Below, piece after piece: positions 5,261-59,641 of a stretch of DNA of 64,000 nucleotides. Under the pieces are notes generated by a model that saw nothing but the letters and a program-made list of their open reading frames with translations, was not told the origin of the DNA and did not search any database. The number at the start of each line of letters is the position of its first letter. The first letter of the stretch is position 1. Source of the stretch: a virus (Duplodnaviria; Caudoviricetes); the IMG/VR virus record IMGVR_UViG_3300027819_000006; one strand, given 5' to 3'. Position numbers and translations under genes: made by a program.

Positions 5261-5370
5261 AAAAATTGTCTATAGTAGCACCCTAATAGACTGAAGTCAG
5301 AAGGCTATAGACAATTTTTCAAATATATTTATGTTTTGTCTATTAGTGTGCTTATAATAAATATATTTGA
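5261..5370 (-). promoter_or_regulatory. Structured leader upstream of endonuclease 4099..5247
   Basis: Inverted pairs 5261-5275/5305-5319 (15/15) and 5277-5291/5338-5352 (14/15); 17-mer ataataaatatatttga at 5354-5370. Confidence 0.75.
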
Positions 5371-5603
5371 TCAAGAAATAAATGCATTTGACCTATCCCT
5401 GTCTCTGCCATTAGCAGATATCCATATCCCTCTTTTGAACCAGCTTCTATATCTTTAATTATCTTTGGTTCAATAGTTCCCCAGTCTCTAGCAATTTTTC
5501 CTACACGTACAAACTTTGCAATTTTCTTGTCTTTTTGCTTTATTCTACCATTTGGATCAGAGAAGAATACTGCTGGCCTATTTTCGTAAGTGAAGTTGAT
5601 CAT
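5352..5603 (-). pseudogene. Truncated 5' paralogue of topoisomerase IB
   Basis: Aligns to the N-terminal ~70 aa of 3110..4045 (FFS, RIKQKDKK, IEP, GSKE, TGI) and diverges exactly where the catalytic Arg (TGI|R) would be. Confidence 0.8.
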
Positions 5604-5620
5604 TTAGTAATTCTCCTCTA

Positions 5621-5655
5621 TTTTGGTATGTTTAAATATAAATTTCATACCAAAA
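5621..5655 (-). promoter_or_regulatory. Hairpin with TATATTTA in the loop, just upstream of the RBS of the truncated topoisomerase copy
   Basis: ttttggtatg (5621-5630) / cataccaaaa (5646-5655); an 8-bp hairpin (4072-4079/4088-4095) overlapping the same motif precedes the intact copy. Confidence 0.5.
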
Positions 5656-5669
5656 GTAAAGGATTATTT

Positions 5670-6359
5670 TCAAAAATTACACTGACATCCTTTTAACATT
5701 AAAATGTCCATATCGCAAATACAGCCCCAAACTCTATTTGTTTTCTCTAATTGAGCTTTTATGGATTCTTTAACATTTGTAACTTCATATCGAGAAAAAA
5801 TTTTATCTGATAATTCTGCATGAGGTATAAATGGAATATAGATACTTAATATATGTCTATTATCTAATCTCTTACAAATAGAATCTATAAACTTAGTTTC
5901 ATCATCTATTTCAAAATCTAACATTCTTGTTTCAGCTGTTATTGCTGTAGCTATTACTCTATCTTTACAAGTTTCTTTGTCATACATAAATAAAACTCTA
6001 GATGGCAAATTCATACTTTCATAACCATATATTATATTTTTATTTGTCATAATTTGAAGATGATAAACTAATTTTATTATATGACTATACAGTTTATTTG
6101 TGTAATCTGAAGTAAAACATCGATTTAATTGATCATAATCAGCCAAGAATCTTTCTTGATTTCTTAATAGAGTTATAGCTGTGCATTTAGAATATTCTGT
6201 CAGTTTTTCATATTCTTCACAATTTAAAACATTTTTCAATTTAATTTTAAGTTCTTCTATAGCATTCTCATTCAAACTATAACATTCTATATCAACTATC
6301 ATATGCTGTATTTTTGAATATATGCATTTCAACCAAGGATGTATTATATCTATATTCAT
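5670..6359 (-). CDS. Hypothetical protein with C-terminal CxC-x9-CxC motif
   Basis: Ends CICDMDILMLKGCQCNF. Confidence 0.6.
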   Translation of the reverse strand: MNIDIIHPWLKCIYSKIQHMIVDIECYSLNENAIEELKIKLKNVLNCEEYEKLTEYSKCTAITLLRNQERFLADYDQLNRCFTSDYTNKLYSHIIKLVYHLQIMTNKNIIYGYESMNLPSRVLFMYDKETCKDRVIATAITAETRMLDFEIDDETKFIDSICKRLDNRHILSIYIPFIPHAELSDKIFSRYEVTNVKESIKAQLEKTNRVWGCICDMDILMLKGCQCNF

Positions 6360-6362
6360 TTT

Positions 6363-7148
6363 CTATTTAACAAATTGTTCTAAAATTTGTCCTTTCGTTA
6401 TGTTATATTGTTTTAGCAATTGCTTTTTATATTCCATATTATGCGTGTGCAGTAAAGAAATTTCAGGTGTCCACTCTAGCCGGGGTAATTCTTTGCGCTG
6501 CATGTCGTGCCAATAATATTCTAATAGATGTCGATTTATTTCTATATTAAACTCTTCATCATTTAGCATTGTGAAATTTATGATTCTGTCTCTAAGTGTA
6601 TATAGAATATATTCTTCTGTATTTTCAAATCCTAAAGATGTTGGTGCGTATTTATCAATTAGCTTTTGCTGTCTTAATCGAAAATCACAAACTTTAAATT
6701 GAAAAGGTAATATTCTGTGCAAAAATTTTCTTCTAAACATCATACAATCTGGTGCTACCAATTCATTGCAATCTATTCCTGCTGAGAATTGCTTACCAGA
6801 ATCTATAAAATTTTGAACAGCTTTTACAAATCCTTGTTCTGTTAAAAAATGCACATCAAAATTATGTATAACTACTGTATCTCTGTAGCCAGCATTAGCA
6901 TAAGACAGCCCTTCGTTTATTTCTGAAAGTGCTCCTGTAGCAGGATTTTTGTCAATCGGCATAGAAATAAATGCATTCTCAAATACTCCTGAGCAAATCT
7001 TTGTAAGATCTCCGTTGTAAACTGTTACATGTTGCAGATCTTTGTTGAAAGAATAGTTGCTAATTATATCAATTCCAGTATAATATTCAAATACTTTGTT
7101 GACAGATCCAATTCTGATCAAAATTATATTTTTAGGATCAAACATCAT
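6363..7148 (-). CDS. Hypothetical protein, possibly GT-A-like glycosyltransferase
   Basis: Weak: GLSYA...VVIHNFDVHF resembles a DxD region; located in the glycosylation cluster. Confidence 0.3.
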   Translation of the reverse strand: MMFDPKNIILIRIGSVNKVFEYYTGIDIISNYSFNKDLQHVTVYNGDLTKICSGVFENAFISMPIDKNPATGALSEINEGLSYANAGYRDTVVIHNFDVHFLTEQGFVKAVQNFIDSGKQFSAGIDCNELVAPDCMMFRRKFLHRILPFQFKVCDFRLRQQKLIDKYAPTSLGFENTEEYILYTLRDRIINFTMLNDEEFNIEINRHLLEYYWHDMQRKELPRLEWTPEISLLHTHNMEYKKQLLKQYNITKGQILEQFVK

Positions 7149-7383
7149 AATCTATAGCAATCATTTCACTTTGTTTAGTATTATATACATATTGCAACTT
7201 TCCAGATTTATATGAAGCAAAAATAACATCCAATCTTCCATACTCTATCAAATGACTTTCAGTAGCTGTATATGGATAGCTTTTTAGATCTGATAATCCA
7301 AGCTTATACTTGAATGTATTGAAATCATTCACTTCTTCATATTTCATTTTTACTGTTGTCATTTTAGCAACCCTTTATTTAAA

Positions 7384-7620
7384 TTATGGAACTATAATAC
7401 TACTTGTCATCTGTCTGTGCATTGCTTCATATATGAGTTCTGGTATCTGCAAAGTTCTACAATGCGAACATACAATTGTAGGAATGGGTCCTAAATTGAA
7501 ACCCATTAGTTTCTCATCATCTTTCTGTTCATAACCACAAGCTACACATATAAAATGATCAGATGCTTCATTTTCTTGTTTTTCTTCCGAGCCAGGGAAT
7601 TGTAATATATTGTCAGCCAT
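7384..7620 (-). CDS. Small zinc-ribbon protein
   Basis: CVAC...CSHC pairs in 78 aa. Confidence 0.45.
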   Translation of the reverse strand: MADNILQFPGSEEKQENEASDHFICVACGYEQKDDEKLMGFNLGPIPTIVCSHCRTLQIPELIYEAMHRQMTSSIIVP

Positions 7621-8191
7621 TTTCCTCCACTATTTTTTCAATGATGCCGTGTATCAAACAAATGCTTGATATCTCATGAACTCCATATCCACTTTCTTTA
7701 AACCATATAATATCGTCAAAACACTTTTTAGATTCTTCATATGTATTTTGAAATCCAAATATTCCAATTGTTTTGCACTTAACAGATTTTGCATATGCAG
7801 AAGCATGTAAAATATTCTTAGACTTACCACTAGAAGATATAGATATTAGTAAATCATTTTCATTTAGATTAAATCTTTTTAGCCATTCAATATAAATATT
7901 TTCAAAAGTGTAATCATTGCCAAAACAAGTTAACATAGACCCAGAAGACATTACATGAGCTTCTATATTACATCTTTTAAATAGATCATTTGCTATATGA
8001 TCGCAGTTGCTCCAAGATCCCCCATTTCCTGCAAGGAATATTCTTTTACTTGATTTTATAGCATTATATAAATTATATACAGAGTTAATATTTGTAGAAC
8101 ATACAAATTTATTTACTTCACACGAGAACTTTGCTACAAAATCATTTACTTCATAAACATCTTTCAGCTGTTCTTCCATACTACTTTGCAA
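7613..8191 (-). CDS. gmhA: Phosphoheptose (sedoheptulose-7-P) isomerase, SIS domain
   Basis: LAGNGGS..CDH, GNDY, SISSSGKSKNI..A, VHE motifs. Confidence 0.85.
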   Translation of the reverse strand: MQSSMEEQLKDVYEVNDFVAKFSCEVNKFVCSTNINSVYNLYNAIKSSKRIFLAGNGGSWSNCDHIANDLFKRCNIEAHVMSSGSMLTCFGNDYTFENIYIEWLKRFNLNENDLLISISSSGKSKNILHASAYAKSVKCKTIGIFGFQNTYEESKKCFDDIIWFKESGYGVHEISSICLIHGIIEKIVEENG

Positions 8192-31011: not shown

Positions 31012-31737
31012 CTAATCCTTTCTTGAAACTAATATGTTTAATTGTTTGTGAACCAATTCGTGTAGAAGATCTAATGATTCTTTTTCTTCTACTTTCATTT
31101 CACTTAATATTTTTATAAAACTAACAGCAAAATTTTTAAACTTGTAGTCTTCAAAAAATTCTACTAGATATTCTTCTGGAATTTTATTTAGGATAGTAGA
31201 GGCAATATCTTCTTTACTGATTATCTTCACTATTTCTTTAATCTCATCTACTATTACAGCCTTATTCATGTCATCTAAATCTCTACCATCCAATAAAGAG
31301 TTTAATTCATCTACTACATTTTTAAACACTCTATATAGTTTTCTTTTATCTTTTACTATCCAGTTCTCATATTGCTCAGCATTACCAGTAAAAGAAACTA
31401 TGTCATTCACATTAATATAGTGAGTACCATCAGATCTGCTTCTGATTTTGTTGACTAAATATGATTCTAGTAGATGTTTAACTTTCTTAAACATCTCTTC
31501 ATCATGCATGAATTTGTTTCTTAGAGCCATCATGGACTCACTTACTACAAATTCATAGATGTTTTTAATTTTTTCTAATAGCTCTGATTTGCTACTTTCA
31601 TCTGAAACTTTAGATGTTCTAATGTTGTTTTTGTCTTGAATATGCTTTTTAAATTTGTCAAAAACATCTTCTTTATTGATTCTAAATAATATTTCTATAG
31701 GAGCTGTAGCTTTGTCTGCTGTTTCTTCTGACATCAA
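31012..31737 (-). CDS. Hypothetical protein
   Basis: 241-aa ORF in an operon-like overlap arrangement. Confidence 0.5.
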   Translation of the reverse strand: MMSEETADKATAPIEILFRINKEDVFDKFKKHIQDKNNIRTSKVSDESSKSELLEKIKNIYEFVVSESMMALRNKFMHDEEMFKKVKHLLESYLVNKIRSRSDGTHYINVNDIVSFTGNAEQYENWIVKDKRKLYRVFKNVVDELNSLLDGRDLDDMNKAVIVDEIKEIVKIISKEDIASTILNKIPEEYLVEFFEDYKFKNFAVSFIKILSEMKVEEKESLDLLHELVHKQLNILVSRKD

Positions 31738-33062
31738 ATTTCTCCAATTTTGTTACATTTTAGAGTATAAAGAACAAATTCATTTTCTAAAATATTTAAT
31801 GATTCTTTTACTATATCAAATAGCAAATGATGCTCTTCTACAAAACAGTCTAATATAATAGAATCATGCTTTGTAGCTATTATTTTTGACTTCAAGTTGT
31901 TTCTAATAATGTTTGATTGAAAATTTGACACAAACTTTAAGAATATACATACTGCTTCATTCTGACAAAGATTATTAATGCTCTTGTCTTGAACATCTTC
32001 TAAACTGGTGTAAGATATGCTCTTTCCAGAAGAGCATACTATCTTCCTATTTTCTATACTCTTTATGTATTGTAAGATTCTAAATTTTAATTCTTTAATT
32101 TCTTTAATAGTTTCTAATTCTTTATTTCTATTTTTGTAACCATAAAGAAATGGTATAATAGAATTTTTTAAATTAGTTCTATTCTTTTTTAGAATTTTAG
32201 AATAATAAGTATAAAAATCAGTTTCTAAAAGCTTGATTCTAAAGATTTTATATAGCGTCTTAATCTCAAAATTTGAAAAGTCAAGAGACACAATTATACC
32301 CTGATCATCAAATCTACTCACAATACATTTTTCATACTTCTTCTGAATTGTGTGAAAACTTGAAGATAACCTTCCAGTACTGGTTTTAGTAAGGCTATAA
32401 CTTAAGTTAGCTATTTTACTATTCTCTATATAGTCATTGTAATAATTTTTTATGTGGCTATAAACATAGTTTGCATGATTTATATCAATATTTATTTTAT
32501 TTGTTTCTATAATAGAATATGTTATAGAAACTTCATGCAATAGTTTCGTAAATTCATTTTCTTTATAGTTATTCTCTATATAGTTCTTAAGTTTATTTAA
32601 TACTACTGTCTCATCTATTAAACTTTTATTTAATAAATTTTCATTAAATATTTGATAAGGGACTATAGATAGATCATAGCTTTTATTAACAAAGCTTTTC
32701 AGATCATTTCTATATTTTGTTCCAGTAATATTTCTGATCTCTTCATCATCTAGATCTAAATCTTTGTTCAGAATATTGCTTAAAGCTATTCTGACATCAA
32801 TAAATTTAGTATGATCTAATATTATATTTTGTTCAGCAAATGCTTTTGAAAATTCTTTTAAGTCATAAATGTATAATCTATTCAACTTATGAATGTTTTC
32901 TGCTATCAGCTTTATATCTATACAATTTAGAACATAAATTTCATCATTGCTGCAAAAGCAGAATCTGACTAGTTTGTTGTCAGAACTGCTTTTGTAATTT
33001 ATGATGCTGTCATCTTTGAAATTGCTGAAAAATATGTCTTCGTTTACATAGAACACTTTCAT
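31734..33062 (-). CDS. Compact family A DNA polymerase-like protein
   Basis: TSTGRLSS, motif A SLDFSNFE, motif B R..LK.....FLYG, N..CQ..A, motif C KHDSIILD. Confidence 0.7.
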   Translation of the reverse strand: MKVFYVNEDIFFSNFKDDSIINYKSSSDNKLVRFCFCSNDEIYVLNCIDIKLIAENIHKLNRLYIYDLKEFSKAFAEQNIILDHTKFIDVRIALSNILNKDLDLDDEEIRNITGTKYRNDLKSFVNKSYDLSIVPYQIFNENLLNKSLIDETVVLNKLKNYIENNYKENEFTKLLHEVSITYSIIETNKINIDINHANYVYSHIKNYYNDYIENSKIANLSYSLTKTSTGRLSSSFHTIQKKYEKCIVSRFDDQGIIVSLDFSNFEIKTLYKIFRIKLLETDFYTYYSKILKKNRTNLKNSIIPFLYGYKNRNKELETIKEIKELKFRILQYIKSIENRKIVCSSGKSISYTSLEDVQDKSINNLCQNEAVCIFLKFVSNFQSNIIRNNLKSKIIATKHDSIILDCFVEEHHLLFDIVKESLNILENEFVLYTLKCNKIGEI

Positions 33063-39958: not shown

Positions 39959-42133
39959 TCAAAAATCCATCAAATTTTGAATTATTATATCTGTATTAGA
40001 ATCTTTTCTTATAGGGTTTGCAAGTTTAGAAATTGCTAAAAGATTCCCCCAGTCGTCATACAACCCCACAGTTGTAATATAAGTTGCTGGTGAATCTAAC
40101 AAGCTATCATTTGTATCAGGTGAAACAGATGTTGGGTTCTCTGAATAATTATATTCTGAACCAGAGATTGTAGCATTCAGCATCAGTCTTCCTCTATTTT
40201 CTATAGAATCAAAAGCTATTCTTCTGATATTGAAAGCTGAATTATTATTTCCTGTAACTGTAAATCCAAAGTCTCCAGTAGTTCCAGATGCAGGATATAA
40301 CCAAAATAGTCCAGCATTTGCATCATTATTATCTAATATGATAGTTTTCAGATCATAATAGATTAATCCTACTCTTGTAATTGTGCCATCACCACCAGAT
40401 CTAAATATTCTACCTTGTTTCATTCCATTTTGCAAAACAGTTTCAGGTTGATCTGTATATAAATATGTCCTCAGAATAGAAGATGCAGAAGATTCTGATA
40501 TTGGCATAGCTGTAGTTGTAATATCGTCATGATCAAATAAATCTATTCCACTATTTCCAACTAGAACTCCAGTATTTGAATATTTGCTTATATCGTCAGC
40601 AGACAGAGTATTTCTTTCATTGAAATTCCACCAAGCAACTATATTTGTAGAAGTAGATCCTCCTGTCAATGTAGGATCCCAAAAATTGCTGAATAGAATG
40701 CCAGCTGTTGATGAAGCAGTAACCAATTTATTTATCTGATCTTTAATTCCTGTGCTACCATCTGTAAATCTTTTATTCCACATTCTTATATGTTGAATCT
40801 GTCCATCATAGCCACCATCTAAATTTGTATCACCAGATAAAGCTAAAGATACTCTATCACCAGTAGTATCAGTTTTTGCTCTATTATAGTTAGAAATTCC
40901 TATGTATAGATTATTGGCAGAGTTTGTAGCACCATCTACCATATCTCCATAAGAAATACTTGTGGTCTTCAAAGGAATTCTCTGGTCAAACATATTAGTC
41001 TGAACTACTGGTCCATTTGCTGCATCTGAACCGTTTAACCTTGGATCAACTTGTTCACTATTATATAATTTGTAACCATCAATATAACCAAATACTGCTC
41101 CAGCACCAGATTCTACAGTATTTGAACCATCTACACCAGATATTCCCCAACTAACTATTAATCTATGAAACTTGCCATCATAGATATTTATGCCTACATC
41201 ATCTGGAATGAATAGACCAGAAGCTTGAACATCTTTCTGAGCAAATGTATTTGTAAAATCTGTATCTGAAGAAGAGCCTCTTATATAAAATCTAAATGCT
41301 GATTTCTGTTTGTCTGGTGATTCACAGAGTTCTAACTTCATAAAAGCATTTTGAGTGCTGATATTTGATCCATCAAAACCAGAGTTTGAAAGTCTTCTCC
41401 ACAAAATAGTAGAATTAACATTATATGGTCTTATCACAGCTTCTATTGTCAGAGCACTTGTTGCTAAATCTAAACTGCTATTAGGTGCCCATCTGACTCC
41501 AAAGAATGATTTTGTAGGAACACCAATATCTCCGCCATAGGAATTTTTTAAATCTAAAGCTGTAGTAAATCCCGTGGCATTTCCTGTCACTATTCCCGTA
41601 GCAGAACTATTTGAGTTATTAAATTCCATTCTAAAAGAAGAAGGTAATATATGATCTTTTGCTAAATCTCTTCTTAATGATATGACTCTAGCTACAGTCA
41701 AGTTTATAGATGTAGTAGAGCTAATTATAGAAGTACTACTTTGAGCAGAATATATATTATCTTGTCTGTATAGATATCCTTGTAGATAATTGAACAGAGC
41801 TTGATGAGACATTGAAGAATTGTCATTAGAGCTGCTTTTATAATTCTGCACAGCAGAGTTAGATAGGAAACATCCAACTGGTCTTTCAGCTGTCAGAGAA
41901 CTTCCAGGTATAGTAGTTTTGTCAAAATTCCATAGATATTTTACTTCTTGAGCTTGAGTTAGGCCAAATTGTAGAGGAACATCTGTTCTTAAAAGATTTA
42001 CTTTACCAAGAGATTTGATAGCTGTAAAGAAATGAACATTAGAAGCACAAGGACTTATATTAGAGATAGAAATAGTCTCTTGATTATCAAACTTTATAGG
42101 AATTATCTGCGAAGGTTCAAAGACTTTAAACAT
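39959..42133 (-). CDS. Large baseplate/tail structural protein (LamG-like insert, GLY..GNLLA C-terminus)
   Basis: 724 aa; GQIQHIRMW, VAWWNFNE, TYITTVGLYDDWGNLLAISKLANPIRK. Confidence 0.65.
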   Translation of the reverse strand: MFKVFEPSQIIPIKFDNQETISISNISPCASNVHFFTAIKSLGKVNLLRTDVPLQFGLTQAQEVKYLWNFDKTTIPGSSLTAERPVGCFLSNSAVQNYKSSSNDNSSMSHQALFNYLQGYLYRQDNIYSAQSSTSIISSTTSINLTVARVISLRRDLAKDHILPSSFRMEFNNSNSSATGIVTGNATGFTTALDLKNSYGGDIGVPTKSFFGVRWAPNSSLDLATSALTIEAVIRPYNVNSTILWRRLSNSGFDGSNISTQNAFMKLELCESPDKQKSAFRFYIRGSSSDTDFTNTFAQKDVQASGLFIPDDVGINIYDGKFHRLIVSWGISGVDGSNTVESGAGAVFGYIDGYKLYNSEQVDPRLNGSDAANGPVVQTNMFDQRIPLKTTSISYGDMVDGATNSANNLYIGISNYNRAKTDTTGDRVSLALSGDTNLDGGYDGQIQHIRMWNKRFTDGSTGIKDQINKLVTASSTAGILFSNFWDPTLTGGSTSTNIVAWWNFNERNTLSADDISKYSNTGVLVGNSGIDLFDHDDITTTAMPISESSASSILRTYLYTDQPETVLQNGMKQGRIFRSGGDGTITRVGLIYYDLKTIILDNNDANAGLFWLYPASGTTGDFGFTVTGNNNSAFNIRRIAFDSIENRGRLMLNATISGSEYNYSENPTSVSPDTNDSLLDSPATYITTVGLYDDWGNLLAISKLANPIRKDSNTDIIIQNLMDF

Positions 42134-42135
42134 TT

Positions 42136-42662
42136 CTATGTTACTCTAATTTTATATTTTTTATCATTCTTGCTTGAATATATAATACATTTAGCTATAA
42201 AACATAAATTATTGAATTCTTTATTGTTTTCTAAATGGTTACAACTATCTTTTTTAACATAAGCTACTGTGACATGTGGTTTGTAATCAGGATATGAATT
42301 TTTATTATCAAAATTGTCTTCTATATCGTAGTGTAATTTTTCTAAATCTTTACTTGCTATTCTTATAGTTACTACATCATGATCACTTGAATCTCTGAAT
42401 ATTTGAACATTTTCAAACAGAATCTAACTTGTCCATAGTTGTCAAGATAATCTCTAATTTTATCTGCTTTTTCATCCGTTAAGCCATAGAGAACTGTAAC
42501 GTGTATATCATTTTTAGATTGTCTACCCATGTCATCTTTTGCATATATAGAATTCTGGGGAATATTTTCAATTCCCCATTTGTAGATTCTACTTGAGATA
42601 TTTGTTGGTAGATCAATCTGAGTAGATGAATAAGAATGTTCTAGTAGATAAGATAGTTTCAT
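42136..42662 (-). pseudogene. 2H phosphoesterase (two HxT motifs) with one frameshift
   Basis: IHVTVLYGL in 42372..42662; alternate frame continues VQIFRDSSDHDVV...YPDYKPHVTVAYVKK...* to 42136; shift in an A-run near 42411. Confidence 0.75.
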
Positions 42663-42687: not shown

Positions 42688-43554
42688 CTAGTACTGAAGA
42701 GTGGTAACTATCGAAATTTCTTTTGTGAACAGCTTTCTAACTGGTGGACTAACTTTACCGACTGCCAAAATTTCTCCTGAATCATTATACAATCCAACAG
42801 TTGTGACATACGTTGTTGGAGAACTTGTTAACGATCCAGAAATCGTTCCCAATGTAGGATTAGATATGGCTGTCGGATTTGTAGTATAATTACATTCATT
42901 TGGAAATGCTCTACAAAAATACATTGTCTGCTTTAAGATATTCAGAGCTTGAAATGACAGAGAAGTACATACAACAAAACCTGCAGATGCTGCTCCAAAT
43001 GTAAATCCTGAAGCTGAGTCACAGAGAAAATGTGGCCATCCTGTTCCACCATGAAATAGTAAAGAAGCTGTATCATAAAATACAGTTCCTACTATATTAG
43101 ATGTATTACTTTGCGAAACTAAAGATCCTTTTCTACCAACAGATCCAGTAATAGAAGATTCTGGTATATCTATATATGTATTATTAGCAGAAGTTCCGAA
43201 TGTAAAAGTAGCAGTAACAGTACCAGAAACTATTCCATCATCAGAAGTAGTTCTACCAATAGTCATAGCTCTAATAAGAGATGTAGTAGAAGCCAAATTA
43301 TGAGCAACAGGAACTACAGCTGAGGCAGTTGATGAGAAATAGTAATTAGCTATATTTCTAAATGCAGAACTCAGAGGAGTAGTTGTCACAGTTCCTTGAG
43401 CATTATTCATATATGCTGTATCTGAAGCTTGAGCTACAAATGAATTTATATTCTTATTTTGTGCAGCTGAAAGAGAAGTCAGAGCAAAAGATGTTTTATT
43501 TGATATCTCATTCTGCACGATATCACGGTTTTCTTGTAAAGATATGAGACTCAT
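42688..43554 (-). CDS. Baseplate/tail structural protein, GLYND.GE.LA family
   Basis: FCRA...E.NYTTNPT, TYVTTVGLYNDSGEILAVGKVSPPVRK. Confidence 0.6.
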   Translation of the reverse strand: MSLISLQENRDIVQNEISNKTSFALTSLSAAQNKNINSFVAQASDTAYMNNAQGTVTTTPLSSAFRNIANYYFSSTASAVVPVAHNLASTTSLIRAMTIGRTTSDDGIVSGTVTATFTFGTSANNTYIDIPESSITGSVGRKGSLVSQSNTSNIVGTVFYDTASLLFHGGTGWPHFLCDSASGFTFGAASAGFVVCTSLSFQALNILKQTMYFCRAFPNECNYTTNPTAISNPTLGTISGSLTSSPTTYVTTVGLYNDSGEILAVGKVSPPVRKLFTKEISIVTTLQY

Positions 43555-43591: not shown

Positions 43592-44689
43592 TTAACTTCC
43601 ACTCGCAGAAACTGTTAGCTGAAAAACACCGCGGGCACCACTTTGCAGACCTACACAGTCTACTAAAACAGTTCCAGAATTTCCCAAAGCTGTTTTCATT
43701 TGAAATGTAGCTATACCTTGTGAATTTTGTTGTACTTTAGAATTCACCAGTGTTGCTATACTTGTATCTCTAGATATTCCAGCATATCCAGACACATCTG
43801 TTCCATTTGTAGTTTCTACTGTAAAAGAGACTGTGTCTCCATATTTTACTGTAGCTATAGAGGGCTTTATAGATAATACAGACACTTTTAGAGAACCTTT
43901 AGGCAAAGTTATCAGACGGTATCTTTGAGCTATGTCAGGATTTGATGTAGGCTCAAGAATAGGCAAATTCAGAATATTTATGTCTGGATTCGATGGGTTG
44001 CTGACATCGTATAACTGATAATTTATTTCCACTTATTCTGGTTGTCACCAACCAGGTTAGACTATATCTTCATATTATTACTTCTAATATGCTCTGCTTT
44101 TCGATCTATTTTATAAGATCTACTCTACTCTGTGAATATTTTATTATTCCATTTCGATAGTCGTTGAGCTGACTTCATTTTACAGAAGATTAGTTGCTGG
44201 TTGACTCTAATTAAATATTTTTAAGCATTCACATTCATTATTTCTAATCATGTTGTAGCTATTTAATTTTAGCAAGCTATTCCAACAATTAACAGAGTTT
44301 ATAGACGACTCAATAATTTATCTTACAGGATCGTCCCCGAACGAAAATTTTGTAATTTTAAAACTGCCATCGTTCTTGGCAAGCAATTCTCTTCCTTTGG
44401 TCGTTAAAATGCAATCTATGATCGCCGAATTGTTAACTTATAGTTATAATTCCTATAAGACCGGACTATTTCTTCAACTGGTATATGTTTCAGTTGCTCG
44501 GGGCTTTATGAGATATTATTAGTAAGATTCTTCAATCTCTAGTCTCTGCACCTTTCTATATACTTATTATCTATTCTATAGAGTAGGCTCAAGATTGGCA
44601 TTTCAGCTTTCCTTGAGTTTACCGAGTTTTTCATTATATATCGCTATATAAGCTACCTATGATCAAGTAGATGAATCAAGATATGCCAC
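43592..44689 (-). CDS. Spliced virion structural gene (exons 44666-44689, 44330-44425, 43592-44029; 185 aa)
   Basis: RBS aaggag + GTG at 44689; the joined exons read MAYLDSST|AIIDCILTTKGRELLAKNDGSFKITKFSFGDD|EINYQLYD..., with all junctions on codon boundaries. Confidence 0.85.
44030..44329 (-). ncRNA. Group I intron (300 nt, ORF-less; IA/IB-like core)
   Basis: P1 GACGAU/GUCGUC with U.G at the 5' splice site; R UCAACGACUA (44158-44167); S AAGAUAUAGUCU (44059-44070); P9 CUGGUUG-GUGA-CAACCAG; terminal G at 44030. Confidence 0.9.
44426..44665 (-). ncRNA. Group I intron (240 nt, ORF-less; IC3/tRNA-Leu-like core)
   Basis: P1 CUACU/GGUAG with U.G; P AAACUCAAGGAAA; Q AAUCUUGAGC; R GCAGAGACUAG; S AAGAAAUAGUCC; P3 CUCGG/CCGAG; terminal G at 44426. 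Confidence 0.88.
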
Positions 44690-45571
44690 TATTTATTCTC
44701 CTTTAAATTTAATTCTTTCTCATGTTTTTCTATATCTTTTAAAAACCAAACTTCTAATTCATAATTTAAATTTCTTACAGCTTGCCATTTCAATTCATCA
44801 GTGCTTGTTTTGAAACCTTTAATTTCTAAATATTTAAATGAATTATCTATATTATTTTAAAATCGATACAGTATGAATGATTTTTATCATCTTCTCCAAC
44901 ATATTGCACTCTGTCGTTAGTGTATTCCCAATCTTTAATAATACCTGCATCTTTCATTTTATCTAATATAAAGCAAGATCTATATTCATAGCTTCCTAAA
45001 ACTTTTAAATTTTCATTATATTGTATCCATTTTGAAAAAGACTGTCCAGATGGATTTCTACCATTTATATAAGTATTCTTTGCAGATTTCGACATCTTGT
45101 CTTTAGTTTTTTCAGTTTGTTTAAACCCTTTTCTATTCTTTTTGCTCTAATTTTATCTCTAGTTTCTTTAGAAACAGGTTTATTATATCGACCATTTTTA
45201 TCACCTTCAGTTAAATAACCCTTATTATAATGGCCATTCTTACTTCTTGATACTAGATGACCCTTGCCATACATTCCATTTCTTTCACCTTGACTATGAT
45301 ATTTAGAAACACATTTTATGCTGCAAAACTCATGCTTTAAAGTATCTGTTGGCAAATGATAGCTATTTTCAAACCAACTATTGCATTGTAAACATTTAGT
45401 GAAGCAGTTAAATACTATATTAGATAGCCAAAATTTACATTTTCTAGAGCAGCAATTTGATTTATAGATTACAGCAGAGTCATTTTTAACTTCTGTTTCA
45501 AACCACTGACAACATGCATCACATTTCTTACTACATGTATAATATTTTGCTTTCATATAACTAAATATCAT
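44689..45571 (-). pseudogene. Decayed free-standing endonuclease (Cys-rich + NUMOD-like + PD-(D/E)xK) with two frameshifts
   Basis: Frames 45065..45571, 44847..45095 and an unlisted third (DNSFKYLEIKGFK...W...KENK*) whose TAG overlaps the GTG of the intron-containing gene. Confidence 0.8.
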
Positions 45572-52773: not shown

Positions 52774-54162
52774 CTATTGCACAGAGAAAAACCATTTCTG
52801 TTTATTGGCATAGATATATGTAGATCCTTTTAATGACAGTTTTAACAAAATATAGTATTTCTTATTTGCATATAAGTCCTGACAGTTAAATTGTAGGAAA
52901 TTTCCAACCTTATCGAATGATAAAGTGTCAGCTGGAATCTCCGTCGAATCTGTATCTAGCTCATGTAGCTCCCAGGTGCTATTTGTGGCAATAAAATTCT
53001 GTTGCGCTGTTGTAGCTCCAGTTGCAGCTACCAATGATACAGAGTTGTCTTTTATGTTTATTCTAATTCTTGGTTGTGAATTCTTGTCATAAACATTGCT
53101 CAAATTCTGCAATATAACTCTATAAGAAGAAGTCTGATAATTATCAAATCCAGAAGCTGGATTTATTGTTGTAAATGAAAATGTATAATTTGCTGTAGGA
53201 GATGCAGAGATATACCAATTGTCTTTGAATGAAGTAGCAGCAAATGCATTTGAAGTCAGGGGCATTGTTCCAATATTACACTGATAAATACCTTTAGACC
53301 ATCTTTTAGCTGTCAAACTTGTTTTAATTGCAGAAACAGCATTGTTTGAAGATGAAGTTCCAGATAGAGTAATGTTTCCAGGGAAATCTCCAGATGCTAC
53401 AGCATTCAAATCTGTTAGCTGCCCATTGACTATATTATAGAAAAATAGATTAGCTGTTGAATTAAATGCAACAAAATTTCTGAAATCTTGTATTGCTCCA
53501 GGCCACTCTAGAGAAATAAATGGCCTATTCGTAGTGTTAGTCTGACGAGAATAAAATTTCTTTGTATAGTAACTGAATGCTGATAAAGAGCCTGCTTTAT
53601 TCTCTTCTGTATTAGACATTCTAATCATTAAGCCCTGATTGGCTGTTTGAGAGTTTGTCCATGCCTTAAAAATATTTGTAATGTTGATTCGGAGATTTTC
53701 TTCTCCCTGAGGGAAATATTGAGTAGCAGAATTTGCATCAATTACATAATCTCCACCAGAAGCATTCCAAGCAGTAGAATTTGTAGCAGACACAGCATTT
53801 GCAAAACCAGTTTGAGACATAGAATTGTTTTCTAACCCAGAAGATTCAGACCAATTACTAGTTACTGGATATACATTTAAATTGAAATTAGAAGCTAATG
53901 GATCTCCATGTTTACAGTTGAAAAGATTTAAATATGCAGACACAGTAGTGTCAGTTATTATGTCGGGCAAATCTCTATTTATAATATTAGCTGTGCATGA
54001 AGATATATTGAAAGATATTAATATTCTTGCCCAATTTTTAATGTTAGTATTATTATTGAACAATGTCCAAGTTTCTAATATGGGAGATGCTCCAAAATTA
54101 GAAGTTATGGATTTATCTGTTATAAAAGTGTCTTTATCTGACCAAGATCTAAACACGCTCAT
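52774..54162 (-). CDS. Virion structural protein (DNRLRE/disaggregatase-like domain)
   Basis: DTFI...NFG....LE, R.LI.F, A.LNL, W..SGGD, N.GL.I, K.FYSR.T....P. Confidence 0.6.
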   Translation of the reverse strand: MSVFRSWSDKDTFITDKSITSNFGASPILETWTLFNNNTNIKNWARILISFNISSCTANIINRDLPDIITDTTVSAYLNLFNCKHGDPLASNFNLNVYPVTSNWSESSGLENNSMSQTGFANAVSATNSTAWNASGGDYVIDANSATQYFPQGEENLRINITNIFKAWTNSQTANQGLMIRMSNTEENKAGSLSAFSYYTKKFYSRQTNTTNRPFISLEWPGAIQDFRNFVAFNSTANLFFYNIVNGQLTDLNAVASGDFPGNITLSGTSSSNNAVSAIKTSLTAKRWSKGIYQCNIGTMPLTSNAFAATSFKDNWYISASPTANYTFSFTTINPASGFDNYQTSSYRVILQNLSNVYDKNSQPRIRINIKDNSVSLVAATGATTAQQNFIATNSTWELHELDTDSTEIPADTLSFDKVGNFLQFNCQDLYANKKYYILLKLSLKGSTYIYANKQKWFFSVQ

Positions 54163-55358
54163 TTATTATCTCCATAATTCATAACAAATTCTATGTTATT
54201 GTTTGAGCAATAAATCTTAGCAGCTTCTATTTTTAAATTTAACTTTTCCTGATCAAATATTCTGCCTTTTGTTTCTTCTAATACTATTTTATTTTTATAT
54301 TGTATTAAAAAATCAGGTATATATCGTCTCAATCTGTCATATTCATATTTTATAACTATATGATGTTTTTTTGTCCATTTTATAACATTCATATCTTTAT
54401 CTAATTCTTTCATTCTTTGCAGCTCAAGTCCACTAGCATAAAATTCTTCTATTCCAGTTTTTATAGAAGTATAATACCCTCTTTTAAAATATTTTACTCC
54501 ATAATTTTCGCATCTATTTGCTGCAGCTATACTCATTTTTTGTTTTGTTTCTTCAGATATTATAAAATGTCTGCCAGTACTAATTTTAGACTGATGTTCA
54601 CATTTGACTTTCCACATCTCTTCAGCTTTTTCAATTCCATATTTATCTATCCAAACAGATTTTACAGACACTCTATACATTGGATTACCAGAACCAGAAA
54701 TCTTTTCAGAAATGTTTGCATTTCTTTCTGCCCACATTTCTTTGGCTATTTCAATACCGTATTCTTTTATCCAAATATCTTTTACTGAAACTCCATACAT
54801 TGGATTCAAATCACCTACTCTATTTGACCCAAACATAGGATTGTTTTCTCCTGACATATTCTTTGAGCCAACTATTTTAAATTTATCGCTTAATATATCA
54901 TTAACTGTTTTGCTATCTGGAAATTGTTTTCTATATTTTTCAGAACTAATATTATGTTTGGATTTTAAATGTACACACAAAGCTTCAAAATATCTGTGAC
55001 ATATTAAACATTCTATTTTATTTTCATCTGCATTAAAAGAATTGTCAATATAGATTTGTTTTTTTGATTTTGGTCTTTTATTTCGTATTTCTTGAATTTT
55101 TTCTTCGCTAAACATTTCTTTATATTTTTTATCTTTACTCCAAATAACTATCTCTTTATTTAAATGTCTTCTTTTTAAAGTTTCAGAAATGCGTCTTTTT
55201 CTACATACTAAACATCTTCTGTTTATATCTTTTGTAATATTAGAACAATCTTTTTCTATACAATAGAAAGTTTCATTGTCTCTATGTTTAGAGCAAGTAG
55301 TATATCCTTTGTTTATAGTTTTTTCTCTTAATTTAGCTGCACAGTATTTACAATTCAA
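54159..55358 (-). CDS. Free-standing endonuclease: Cys-rich + C2H2/MucR-like + NUMOD-like + TnsA-like PD-(D/E)xK domain
   Basis: CLIC...L..HL...H, GENNPMFG repeats, YASGLE...YIPDFLI...LEETKG. Confidence 0.78.
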   Translation of the reverse strand: MNCKYCAAKLREKTINKGYTTCSKHRDNETFYCIEKDCSNITKDINRRCLVCRKRRISETLKRRHLNKEIVIWSKDKKYKEMFSEEKIQEIRNKRPKSKKQIYIDNSFNADENKIECLICHRYFEALCVHLKSKHNISSEKYRKQFPDSKTVNDILSDKFKIVGSKNMSGENNPMFGSNRVGDLNPMYGVSVKDIWIKEYGIEIAKEMWAERNANISEKISGSGNPMYRVSVKSVWIDKYGIEKAEEMWKVKCEHQSKISTGRHFIISEETKQKMSIAAANRCENYGVKYFKRGYYTSIKTGIEEFYASGLELQRMKELDKDMNVIKWTKKHHIVIKYEYDRLRRYIPDFLIQYKNKIVLEETKGRIFDQEKLNLKIEAAKIYCSNNNIEFVMNYGDNK

Positions 55359-57419: not shown

Positions 57420-59231
57420 TTAAGCTATCCGCATAACGATATCATTATTTGCATTCTTTAATTCCCAGCAAGCTGTCTCAGGAAATCTTAATACTCCGCC
57501 TTTTGTATTAGCCAAAATGTTATATTCTGTATTAGAATAAACTCTTCCATCTACTGTACCAGCAATGTTGACAATATTAAATTCTGCCACCGACCTTACT
57601 TCTGGCAAACCCTGAATTTTTGAGATCATATCAGGAATCACAATGTAGTCATTAAAATTGGATTGGCTTATGTCCAATTCATTCTTAATGACAAAGTAAG
57701 ATTTGATTAATGCTTCATTAGGGTTAATGTCAGGTTCGGGTACGATGGCAAAATTTACACCAATATTGATTATACTTCCATTTGTTAATTTTACTGAATC
57801 AGAGAATGATCTGTATCGTGATATAAATATTTCTATATTATTTTTTAAGACACTGTCAGGTGCTACTAAATAACCTTTTGTATCTCGAGCTATAGTAATT
57901 AGCTCTACGCCTAAATTGTTTGTAGGGTCTTTTCTAGCATAACTTCTGAATACAGTTCCAAAGTTTTGTGGCATAGATAGAGCTATAACTTGATAATCTT
58001 GTAGAGTAACAGCTCTATTCTGAGCATTGAAGAATGCAGATGTTCTCTGTCTTATTTCATCTAGAGTTTCTCTTTCAGATCCTCCAAATGCTGGTGATAT
58101 ATTATTGGCTGACAGACTTCTCAGAATATTAGAAGCAATATTTGATGAAACAGATTCAAAATTTGCAGTTTTGAATGAATATCGCAAATTTCTAATTGTT
58201 TTCAATGTATTTGCAGCAACATTTGTAGCAATCCCCCCGCCTACTCTGTAATTCACTGTAACAGCTATATTTCTTGGTGCTACACCCAAACTATTGCCAT
58301 CAATAAAATTTGTAGGATCTATTGTAGCTGGTGAGAACCCAGATGGAGAACCCCTTAATGTTGGAGGTAAAGCATAGTCTTCAGGATTTGGTATAATCTC
58401 TGTATCTTCTACTCCAAGAGTACCTGAACCGAATACAAGAGAAGTTCTTCCTTTTGTTTCTCTTTCTGTTACAAATCTTCTTGGTGATCTTTTAAATGCC
58501 AGCACAAATGGAGTATTACCAGAACTAGAAGTTGTGTTAGGTATTCCAGAGAATATTACATCTTGAGCTAAATAATCTACTTTATTCCATTCTGTATTAT
58601 CAGATCCAGATACAGCTACTATTTCTGTAACATCTGGTTCTGGTAGAATAATCTTAAGAAATGGAGTAGCAATAGCTCCTGCTGTATAGATAAAAGTTTT
58701 AGTAGTACCAGCTATAGCCGATATTCCAGATATAGATAAAGTTGTAGTTCCTGCAGCTGTATTGTTAGTAGCAGTTCTATTTGCTGTCAAAGAAAAGTCT
58801 ACATCTTGCATTATCTCAAATGGAATAGATGGCAATAAATTGGTCAATACTCCAGTACCCTTATTGATTGTAAACAGAGAATTAGCAGAAACAGATGTTG
58901 GTACAGAAGCGCTTAATGAAATATTTACTAGAGCAGGAACTCTTGATTTGGGCTGCCTACCGAAAGTCTTAGCATTAGATAGAACATTTCTTTCTTCAAT
59001 AGCTCTATTTGGATCTACTTCATTGATCTGTCTGTCTATGTAGAAAGAAAGCATGTCTCCGACAAATGCTTCCATTTCTAGTATAGCAAGACCTCCAGAA
59101 GCTTGGTTGAAATCAGAATACTGATCTGGAAAGTGATTGCGAAGATATGTCAGCAGTTCAAGCTTGATGCTGTCGAAGTCTTTAGAAACATATCCGATTT
59201 GGCGTATTTCTTTTGGTGCATTTACTGCCAT
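57420..59231 (-). CDS. Baseplate wedge protein (T4 gp6 / baseplate J-like)
   Basis: DFD.IK..L..YL...Y.DF, L.FY.D.Q.NE, GG...ET.DEIR, QNRAVT.QDY. Confidence 0.9.
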   Translation of the reverse strand: MAVNAPKEIRQIGYVSKDFDSIKLELLTYLRNHFPDQYSDFNQASGGLAILEMEAFVGDMLSFYIDRQINEVDPNRAIEERNVLSNAKTFGRQPKSRVPALVNISLSASVPTSVSANSLFTINKGTGVLTNLLPSIPFEIMQDVDFSLTANRTATNNTAAGTTTLSISGISAIAGTTKTFIYTAGAIATPFLKIILPEPDVTEIVAVSGSDNTEWNKVDYLAQDVIFSGIPNTTSSSGNTPFVLAFKRSPRRFVTERETKGRTSLVFGSGTLGVEDTEIIPNPEDYALPPTLRGSPSGFSPATIDPTNFIDGNSLGVAPRNIAVTVNYRVGGGIATNVAANTLKTIRNLRYSFKTANFESVSSNIASNILRSLSANNISPAFGGSERETLDEIRQRTSAFFNAQNRAVTLQDYQVIALSMPQNFGTVFRSYARKDPTNNLGVELITIARDTKGYLVAPDSVLKNNIEIFISRYRSFSDSVKLTNGSIINIGVNFAIVPEPDINPNEALIKSYFVIKNELDISQSNFNDYIVIPDMISKIQGLPEVRSVAEFNIVNIAGTVDGRVYSNTEYNILANTKGGVLRFPETACWELKNANNDIVMRIA

Positions 59232-59242
59232 AGTTTAGCTCT

Positions 59243-59641
59243 TTAAATAGTTAGTGCTACTGTTTCTGAAAAATTTGGTGCATTTTTCAAAGAATATGTA
59301 ATCTTTATCATGATCGACGTATCGTCTAAATAGTCTAATTCTGATTTTGTAAGCAGCTGTATATCATTCAATGTAATATTTGGCAAGAAATTTGTAACAG
59401 CAGAAGTTATTTCATTTCTCATTTTCAGAAGCATTTCATCTCTATTGATATTGTTAAATAATTCTCCACCAATAGTAGTGATGTTTGTACCAATAGTAGG
59501 AAACAATAATCGTTCTCCTTTTCTAGTCATAAGAAGAACTTTTAAATCTTCTCTAGTAGCATTTACTGTAGTCTTGTTTCCTTCTGGGATTCCCTCATTA
59601 CCTTTGATGAACGGAAATTTCCAATTAATCGTTTTAGACAT
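59243..59641 (-). CDS. Baseplate protein, GPW/gp25 family
   Basis: L..LLMTRKGER...P..G...LF...I......LP.I.L. Confidence 0.88.
   Translation of the reverse strand: MSKTINWKFPFIKGNEGIPEGNKTTVNATREDLKVLLMTRKGERLLFPTIGTNITTIGGELFNNINRDEMLLKMRNEITSAVTNFLPNITLNDIQLLTKSELDYLDDTSIMIKITYSLKNAPNFSETVALTI

Follow-up and report, generated by a model that had tools for sequence, protein, structure and literature searches.

Two unrelated group IA introns appear to split a baseplate-block gene in an uncultured groundwater jumbo phage

The minus strand at 44689-43592 of the window, a 64-kb stretch of phage DNA analyzed here as a whole, very probably carries one gene of the baseplate/tail-fibre block that encodes 185 aa and is interrupted by two unrelated, ORF-less group IA self-splicing introns (Table 1). 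A first-pass annotation of the same DNA had described a gene split by two ORF-less group I introns behind a first exon of 24 nt (8 codons), and the Rfam matches together with the restored 185-aa frame agree with this description; the exon and intron coordinates given there were reproduced exactly. The three exons joined make 558 nt and 185 aa, with the introns placed after codon 8 and codon 40. That both introns are spliced we infer from the ribozyme cores, the signatures at the splice sites and the colinear exons.

Table 1. Coordinates within the window of the split gene, its introns and the adjoining upstream gene.
Feature	Coordinates	Strand	Description	Basis
Ribosome-binding site AAGGAG	44698..44703	-	8 nt ahead of the GTG start	Sequence
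Exon 1	44689-44666	-	24 nt; GTG start; VAYLDSST = (M)AYLDSST; ends in the U pairing with G in P1	
Intron 1	44665-44426	-	240 nt; assigned to group IA; no ORF	Rfam and checked helices
Exon 2	44425-44330	-	96 nt, 32 codons: AIIDCILTTKGRELLAKNDGSFKITKFSFGDD	Colinear with homologues
Intron 2	44329-44030	-	300 nt; assigned to group IA2; no ORF	Rfam and checked helices
Exon 3	44029-43592	-	438 nt (435 nt + stop); remaining conserved N-terminal region and Ig-like C-terminal domain	
Endonuclease-like gene, three frames	44692..45571 (45571-45065, 45095-44847, 44856-44692)	-		Three-frame translation

The Rfam scan of the 64-kb window found two matches to RF00028, the group I intron model, and nothing besides these, and a scan of a sub-window gave the same two. 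Both are on the minus strand, the first at 44442-44676 in intron 1 (63.7 bits, E 8e-14) and the second at 44038-44355 in intron 2 (50.8 bits, E 6e-10). Each spans model positions 1-253 of 253 and exceeds the gathering score of 50, and the covariance scan with group I models that had been named as a check in the first-pass annotation thus returned two full-length matches. Intron 2 is barely over the Rfam threshold (50.8 vs 50), and its Rfam alignment mis-places P1 and puts the 3' end at 44038. The boundaries accepted for intron 2 are those given by the protein alignment together with a manually drawn 7-bp P1, P10 and the terminal G.

Each base pair was checked in helices P1 and P3-P9 of both introns and in P2, which only intron 1 has. 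All core helices consist of canonical pairs in both introns, the P3/P7 pseudoknot included. In P1 of intron 1, AUCUACU^UG (the caret marks the splice point here and below) pairs with UAGGUAGCU, and U44666 stands opposite G. P2 of this intron has a GCGA loop, P3 is CUCGG/CCGAG, P4 and P6/P6a are present, and P5 is short, with only 2 bp as drawn. P7 (GACUA/UAGUC) is followed by a 30-nt P7.1 domain closed by GAGAU/AUCUC, and the 3' part includes P8, P9.0 and P9 before the end ...AAUUCG, with the terminal G at 44426. Intron 2 has no P2. In its P1, GGACGAU^ pairs with GUCGUCU over 7 bp, placing U44330 opposite G and enclosing a small extension hairpin. Its P3 has 7 bp, P4 is present, P5 bears a long AU-rich extension, and P6/P6a is followed by P7 (GACUA/UAGUC). 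P7.1 (GAAUA/UAUUC) and P7.2 (GAUCU/AGAUC) are connected by the linker ACAGAGUAGAGUA (...GAGUA), and the 3' part consists of P8, P9 with a GUGA loop and eight further bases, the end being ...AAGUG with the terminal G at 44030. The U.G pair at each 5' splice site and the terminal G, both claimed earlier, were seen in this pairwise check of the helices.

For both 3' exons, a candidate 5-bp P10 can be formed with the bases just 5' of the guide sequence. The 8-mer GAUCAUAG occurs twice on the minus strand, at 44657-44664 (bases 2-9 of intron 1) and at 44416-44423 (bases 3-10 of exon 2), a repetition that fits the intron start and the start of the 3' exon competing for one guide region (P1 extension/P10). 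An ORF search within introns 1 and 2 found no open stretch longer than 42 codons.

The product is colinear with 13 uninterrupted homologues when the junctions are ...TCTACT^GCGATC... and ...GACGAT^GAAATA.... The MAFFT alignment of the joined product with these homologues had zero gaps at both junctions, and the 40 residues from exons 1 and 2 were 60-88% identical to the 13 sequences, so that the junctions predicted in the first-pass annotation are supported by gap-free colinearity with intron-less relatives. An alignment of 83 family members shows no variation at D39, D40 and E41, the residues on either side of junction 2, and these would be altered by any shift of that junction. For intron 1, splicing one base downstream at both ends (ACUU^G...CGG^CGAUC) would retain the U before the 5' splice site, the G at the intron end and the frame, and codon 9 would be Ser, not Ala. 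Ser is present at the same position in homologue P0005, but 9 of the 13 homologues have Ala, and it is U44666 that pairs with G in the wobble marking the splice site, the U after it being paired with A. The shifted junction is accordingly considered improbable, and the junction after U44666 is used below.

The source of the DNA is groundwater metagenomes, in which the longest recorded contig is 271,887 bp (an uncultured jumbo phage of ~272 kb), and the runs carrying the stretch consist of groundwater or sediment metagenome contigs, none of them being an RNA run. As the source is a metagenome assembly, intron-like DNA of another phage might have been stitched into the contig, and short conserved segments of the intron core, such as 44516-44551, do also draw unrelated contigs. 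Against such an artefact, the whole stretch concerned is covered by a single 49-kb contig at even depth. Contigs of 152-365 nt from another sample and study showed zero differences over the pieces that they cover, and one of them, an identical second-sample contig at 44576-44727, crosses the border between exon 1 and intron 1. The comparison of contigs in four runs revealed no joints and no intron-less allele, the low-coverage runs giving identical fragments. Both introns are moreover located exactly at codon boundaries, restoring the frame. The probability that the introns were introduced in assembly is regarded as negligible, and the split gene is treated below as a feature of the phage genome.

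The ORF list includes exon 3 alone, at 43592-44032, as had been reported for the ORF track in the first-pass annotation; the GTG "start" of this ORF, 44032-44030, consists of the final three bases of intron 2 and is a false one. In the public protein collection the gene is represented by P0003, a truncated call of 146 aa, and by no other product. Since two ORF-less introns split the gene, gene finders see only its last exon. The annotation is here corrected to a true product of 185 aa in place of the public 146-aa ORF with its false start inside intron 2. In exon 1, an in-frame TAA is present two codons upstream of the GTG, which is therefore the sole possible start.

The 146-aa ORF would gain meaning if the introns were real and one or both of them were dead for splicing, in which case the gene would be non-functional or expression would be confined to the exon-3 ORF starting at GTG 44032. 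Gene callers do give this ORF, intron 2 scores just 50.8 bits, and the decay of the adjoining endonuclease gene indicates that mobile elements at this locus erode. Yet exons 1 and 2 show no damage, keep the frame and match the homologues at 60-88% identity over family-invariant residues, which is unexpected of a dead gene, and every core helix is intact. The GTG at 44032 is situated immediately 3' to the stem of P9 at the end of intron 2 and is without a Shine-Dalgarno sequence, and the occurrence of the gene in at least 581 related phage contigs suggests that it is needed. Loss of splicing is thus given little credence in comparison with a gene whose two introns are both removed.

The first-pass annotation had proposed two complete cores of different subclasses. 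The cores are indeed complete, but the subclasses do not differ in the way suggested: both introns have helices between P7 and P3' and are assigned to group IA. Intron 1 had been considered tRNA-Leu-like (IC3). The IC3 core, as in the Azoarcus and Anabaena introns, is compact, with P3' directly after P7 and no P7.1/P7.2 domain. In intron 1, 38 nt separate P7 from P3', including the 30-nt P7.1 domain, which contradicts the earlier assignment; the GGUGCAGAGACUA stretch is presumably the sole part of the intron that resembles the IC3 tRNA introns. IC3 was ruled out by this extra domain, the stem of which covaries in related phage introns: the closing stem GAGAU/AUCUC corresponds to GAUGU/ACAUC, CAAU/AUUG and GAGAA/UUCUC in the relatives, all of these being compensatory changes. 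On its predicted secondary structure, intron 1 is a group IA intron. The relatives were collected by scanning viral contigs for a 15-nt P7 motif, which gave 120 hits, mostly due to chance, and BLAST narrowed these to about 10 real ones.

The relatives of intron 1 in IMG/VR contigs include introns of a family A DNA polymerase gene in contig L205, which carries four group I introns inside a 2.8-kb part of that gene (5307-8053, minus strand). One of the four is structurally close to intron 1, there is a likeness to intron 2 elsewhere in the locus, and one region between the intron hits includes a LAGLIDADG-like ORF.

Intron 2 is assigned to group IA2 by its P7.1 and P7.2 helices joined by GUA; P7.1 and P7.2 "linked by G-U-A" is the criterion used for IA2 in PMC3428280. 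The core of intron 2 is ~70% identical to those of introns in Serratia 2050HW-like, Staphylococcus and Bacillus AR9/PBS1 phages. The order UCGAAA, P7.1, GAGUAGAGUA and P7.2 is common to intron 2 and the AR9 and Serratia 2050HW introns, the stem sequences being different. BLAST of intron 1 against intron 2 detected no similarity, and judged by their sequences intron 1 is not a copy of intron 2, nor the reverse. Because the two introns are unrelated in sequence, two separate insertions form the simplest history, in agreement with the two independent invasions proposed earlier.

The search with the exon-3 protein found 22 metagenome relatives, most of them 187-191 aa long and thus about 40 residues longer than exon 3. 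The N-termini of the homologues read MAFLDSSTAVIDAILTKKGRELLAKNDGSFKITKFAFGDDEINYQL and start with MAFLDSST. Relatives are encoded at no fewer than 581 IMG/VR loci, so that the 185-aa product belongs to a very widespread family, and the best 80 of these are all continuous from residue 1 and uninterrupted. The group I intron search in six of the closest loci (two from the encoding contigs and four from IMG/VR) gave no hit. The closest homologue, P0004, has 166 aa, and was suspected of having an intron of its own; the 63-nt gap ahead of its called start, however, equals 21 missing codons and is probably due to a late start call.

For 67 family members, nucleotide conservation was calculated in 24-nt windows across the gene's first 150 nt. 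The intron 2 site (...GDD^EINY...) lies in the most conserved window, at the 99th percentile, and the intron 1 site (...DSST^A...) is among the least conserved windows, at the 9th percentile. The earlier suggestion that both introns had invaded one short conserved motif is therefore true of intron 2 but not of intron 1.

Searches of Pfam, PHROGs, the PDB profiles and the ESM Atlas assigned no named family to the protein, nor does any proteome give it a name. Upstream in the same orientation are PHROG baseplate wedge matches, gp25-like at 59243-59641 (E 3.6e-11) and gp6-like at 57420-59231 (E 9.8e-22), and the split gene is located a few genes downstream of these two wedge genes. Downstream of the split gene there are ConA-like lectin (Laminin_G_3) proteins, and the gene order recurs in two marine contigs, L001 and L002. 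Flavobacterium phage immuto has a distant homologue, gp107, between its baseplate wedge and tail fibre/spike genes; gp108, upstream of gp107, had no Pfam match. Microcystis phage Mel-JY01 is, like immuto, a cultured relative. AlphaFold models of a homologue, made with 18 or 83 sequences, consisted of a confident Ig-like sandwich at residues 90-185 and an extended low-confidence region at the strongly conserved residues 1-87. In fold searches the C-terminal domain matched generic Ig-like domains, including BIG2/Ig domains of tail, decoration and other virion proteins, and a profile search gave a weak match to the C-terminus of lambda gpV. The wedge synteny and the Ig-like C-terminal domain make a virion role of the protein plausible.

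Some further observations were made on the surrounding genes. The products of 42688-43554 and 39959-42133 (both on the minus strand, downstream; 288 and 724 aa) have in common a C-terminal motif, TTVGLY(D/N)D.G.(L/I)LA..K...P(I/V)RK, which suggests a common C-terminal module in these neighbouring, presumptively structural proteins. A 96-aa ORF at 42372-42662 on the minus strand contains IHVTVLYG and has no Pfam match by itself; its counterpart at 13999-14553 in L001 has Pfam hits of the Acb1/2',5'-RNA-ligase type. For a 442-aa ORF at 31734-33062 (minus strand), the matches to DNA polymerase PHROGs are confined to the C-terminal part (phrog_17, positions 964-1196 of 1445), and the DNA polymerase gene of the phage may be split or fragmented.

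Directly upstream of the split gene is an endonuclease-like gene in three frames, the TAG of which overlaps the GTG of exon 1 (TAGTG). Its first piece includes a Cys-rich part and a NUMOD3-type module, the module having 60% identity to a portion of an HNH endonuclease, and the gene matches phrog_1271 with an E-value of 9.5e-4. The later pieces have a motif-level PD-ExK resemblance (IDF...LEIKG) to the gene at 54159-55358, with weak scores (E 0.12-2.5). Neither Pfam searches with each piece nor BLASTP against the unbroken paralogue 54159-55358 gave a significant match. The frame breaks are present also in the second-sample contigs. The paralogue itself, on the minus strand among the structural genes of the baseplate block, is an unbroken gene for 399 aa that matches a ROS_MUCR zinc finger, NUMOD3 and a TnsA-like N-terminal nuclease, and its domain content indicates that it is probably a free-standing homing endonuclease.

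In L001, a different endonuclease of 292 aa (7130-8008, plus strand) occupies the same spot ahead of an uninterrupted target gene, the start of which it overlaps by 8 nt. It has a C2H2 finger and matches the DUF559, Vsr and PHROG "HNH/homing endonuclease" models. The spot upstream of the target gene seems to have served as a landing site more than once. The decayed endonuclease gene here and the different one in L001 before an uninterrupted gene offer a natural case for the study of how introns and endonucleases travel together. By analogy, ORF-less introns beside a putative free-standing endonuclease fit collaborative homing. In cyanophage S-PM2, the psbA intron is ORF-less, the free-standing endonuclease F-CphI is adjacent, and homing is collaborative, in trans (PMC3984707, PMC6083498). 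The likeness lies in an ORF-less intron in a conserved phage gene with an endonuclease-like gene directly beside it; the difference is that two frame changes disrupt the endonuclease gene here, the nuclease domain of which is only weakly recognizable.

The arrangement of the gene suggests the following course of expression. Each intron would fold into a ribozyme within the primary transcript, and guanosine would attack after the last exon U, held in P1 by the U.G wobble with the internal guide. The freed exon would then attack after the terminal G, joining ...UCUACU to GCGAUC... and ...GACGAU to GAAAUA..., and only the doubly spliced mRNA would yield a protein in which the 40 conserved N-terminal residues are joined to the remainder. 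That a full-length product needs both splices, as the first-pass annotation had claimed, is supported by the 185-aa frame, for which exons 1-3 are all needed. Intron 1 begins with the codon UGA, and in intron 2 the fourth codon is UAA, so ribosomes on unspliced RNA would be expected to stop at once. An in-frame stop after the 5' splice site is common in group I introns of protein genes (reviewed in PMC3984707). The introns may have arrived separately by homing, perhaps aided by the upstream endonuclease gene that has since decayed.

The start codon is just 24 nt ahead of the 5' splice site of intron 1. A ribosome initiating or terminating near the start would cover the P1 guide, and translation would therefore exclude the first splicing step. 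With a first exon of 24 nt and a middle exon of 96 nt that is in frame, there would be room for a competition between translation and splicing, or for exon skipping. That the layout is regulatory, with translation and the first splicing step mutually exclusive and with exon skipping of the Twort type in addition, is a speculative and rather unlikely extension. If it were true, the yield of a baseplate-module protein would be set by the speed of RNA folding, and skipping of exon 2 would produce a 153-aa isoform without the most conserved segment.

Phage group I introns are mostly found in genes of DNA and nucleotide metabolism (PMC11878797, PMC12350094), and the present gene bears on the question, raised in both papers, of why these genes are favoured. 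A baseplate-block gene with group I introns is a minority case of a kind already known, and the finding leaves the known workings of such elements unchanged. The rarity of an intron-split structural gene implied in the first-pass annotation does not stand, as Twort orf142 and AR9 gp204 are precedents. T4 td is a phage group IA2 intron. Intron 2 is like the IA2 intron within the gene for DNA polymerase of the T7-like cyanophage Pf-WMP3 (PMC3428280) in having no P2 and in having P7.1 and P7.2 joined by G-U-A, and it resembles introns of the Pf-WMP3 type also in its short P10, the U.G at the 5' splice site and the terminal G. Phage IA2 introns differ from it in being located in DNA and nucleotide metabolism genes and often including a homing endonuclease ORF, while intron 2 is ORF-less and within a structural block.

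Gene orf142 of Staphylococcus phage Twort, which encodes a tail tube protein (PMC11878797), has three introns and undergoes exon skipping according to Landthaler and Shub (1999) as cited in PMC11878797. It is likewise a short virion gene of a large myovirus with several small, clustered, ORF-less group I introns, and its full-length protein requires multiple self-splicing events. It differs in the number of introns (three against two here) and in the host gene (tail tube against baseplate module), and its splicing was shown experimentally, whereas here it is deduced; the present gene is further set apart by a first exon of only 24 nt. The "virion structural protein" gp204 of AR9 (NC_031039) is annotated as three joined pieces with an Rfam group I hit of 56.1 bits inside. 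It is a jumbo-phage virion gene in three exons, with an intron core ~70% identical to intron 2 and the same UCGAAA...GAGUAGAGUA P7.1/P7.2 region. Its host gene is another, much larger one beside the tape measure gene, and AR9 belongs to another phage lineage with a Gram-positive host. With Twort orf142 and AR9 gp204 as precedents, the baseplate-block gene of this uncultured groundwater jumbo phage joins a short list of multi-intron phage structural genes.
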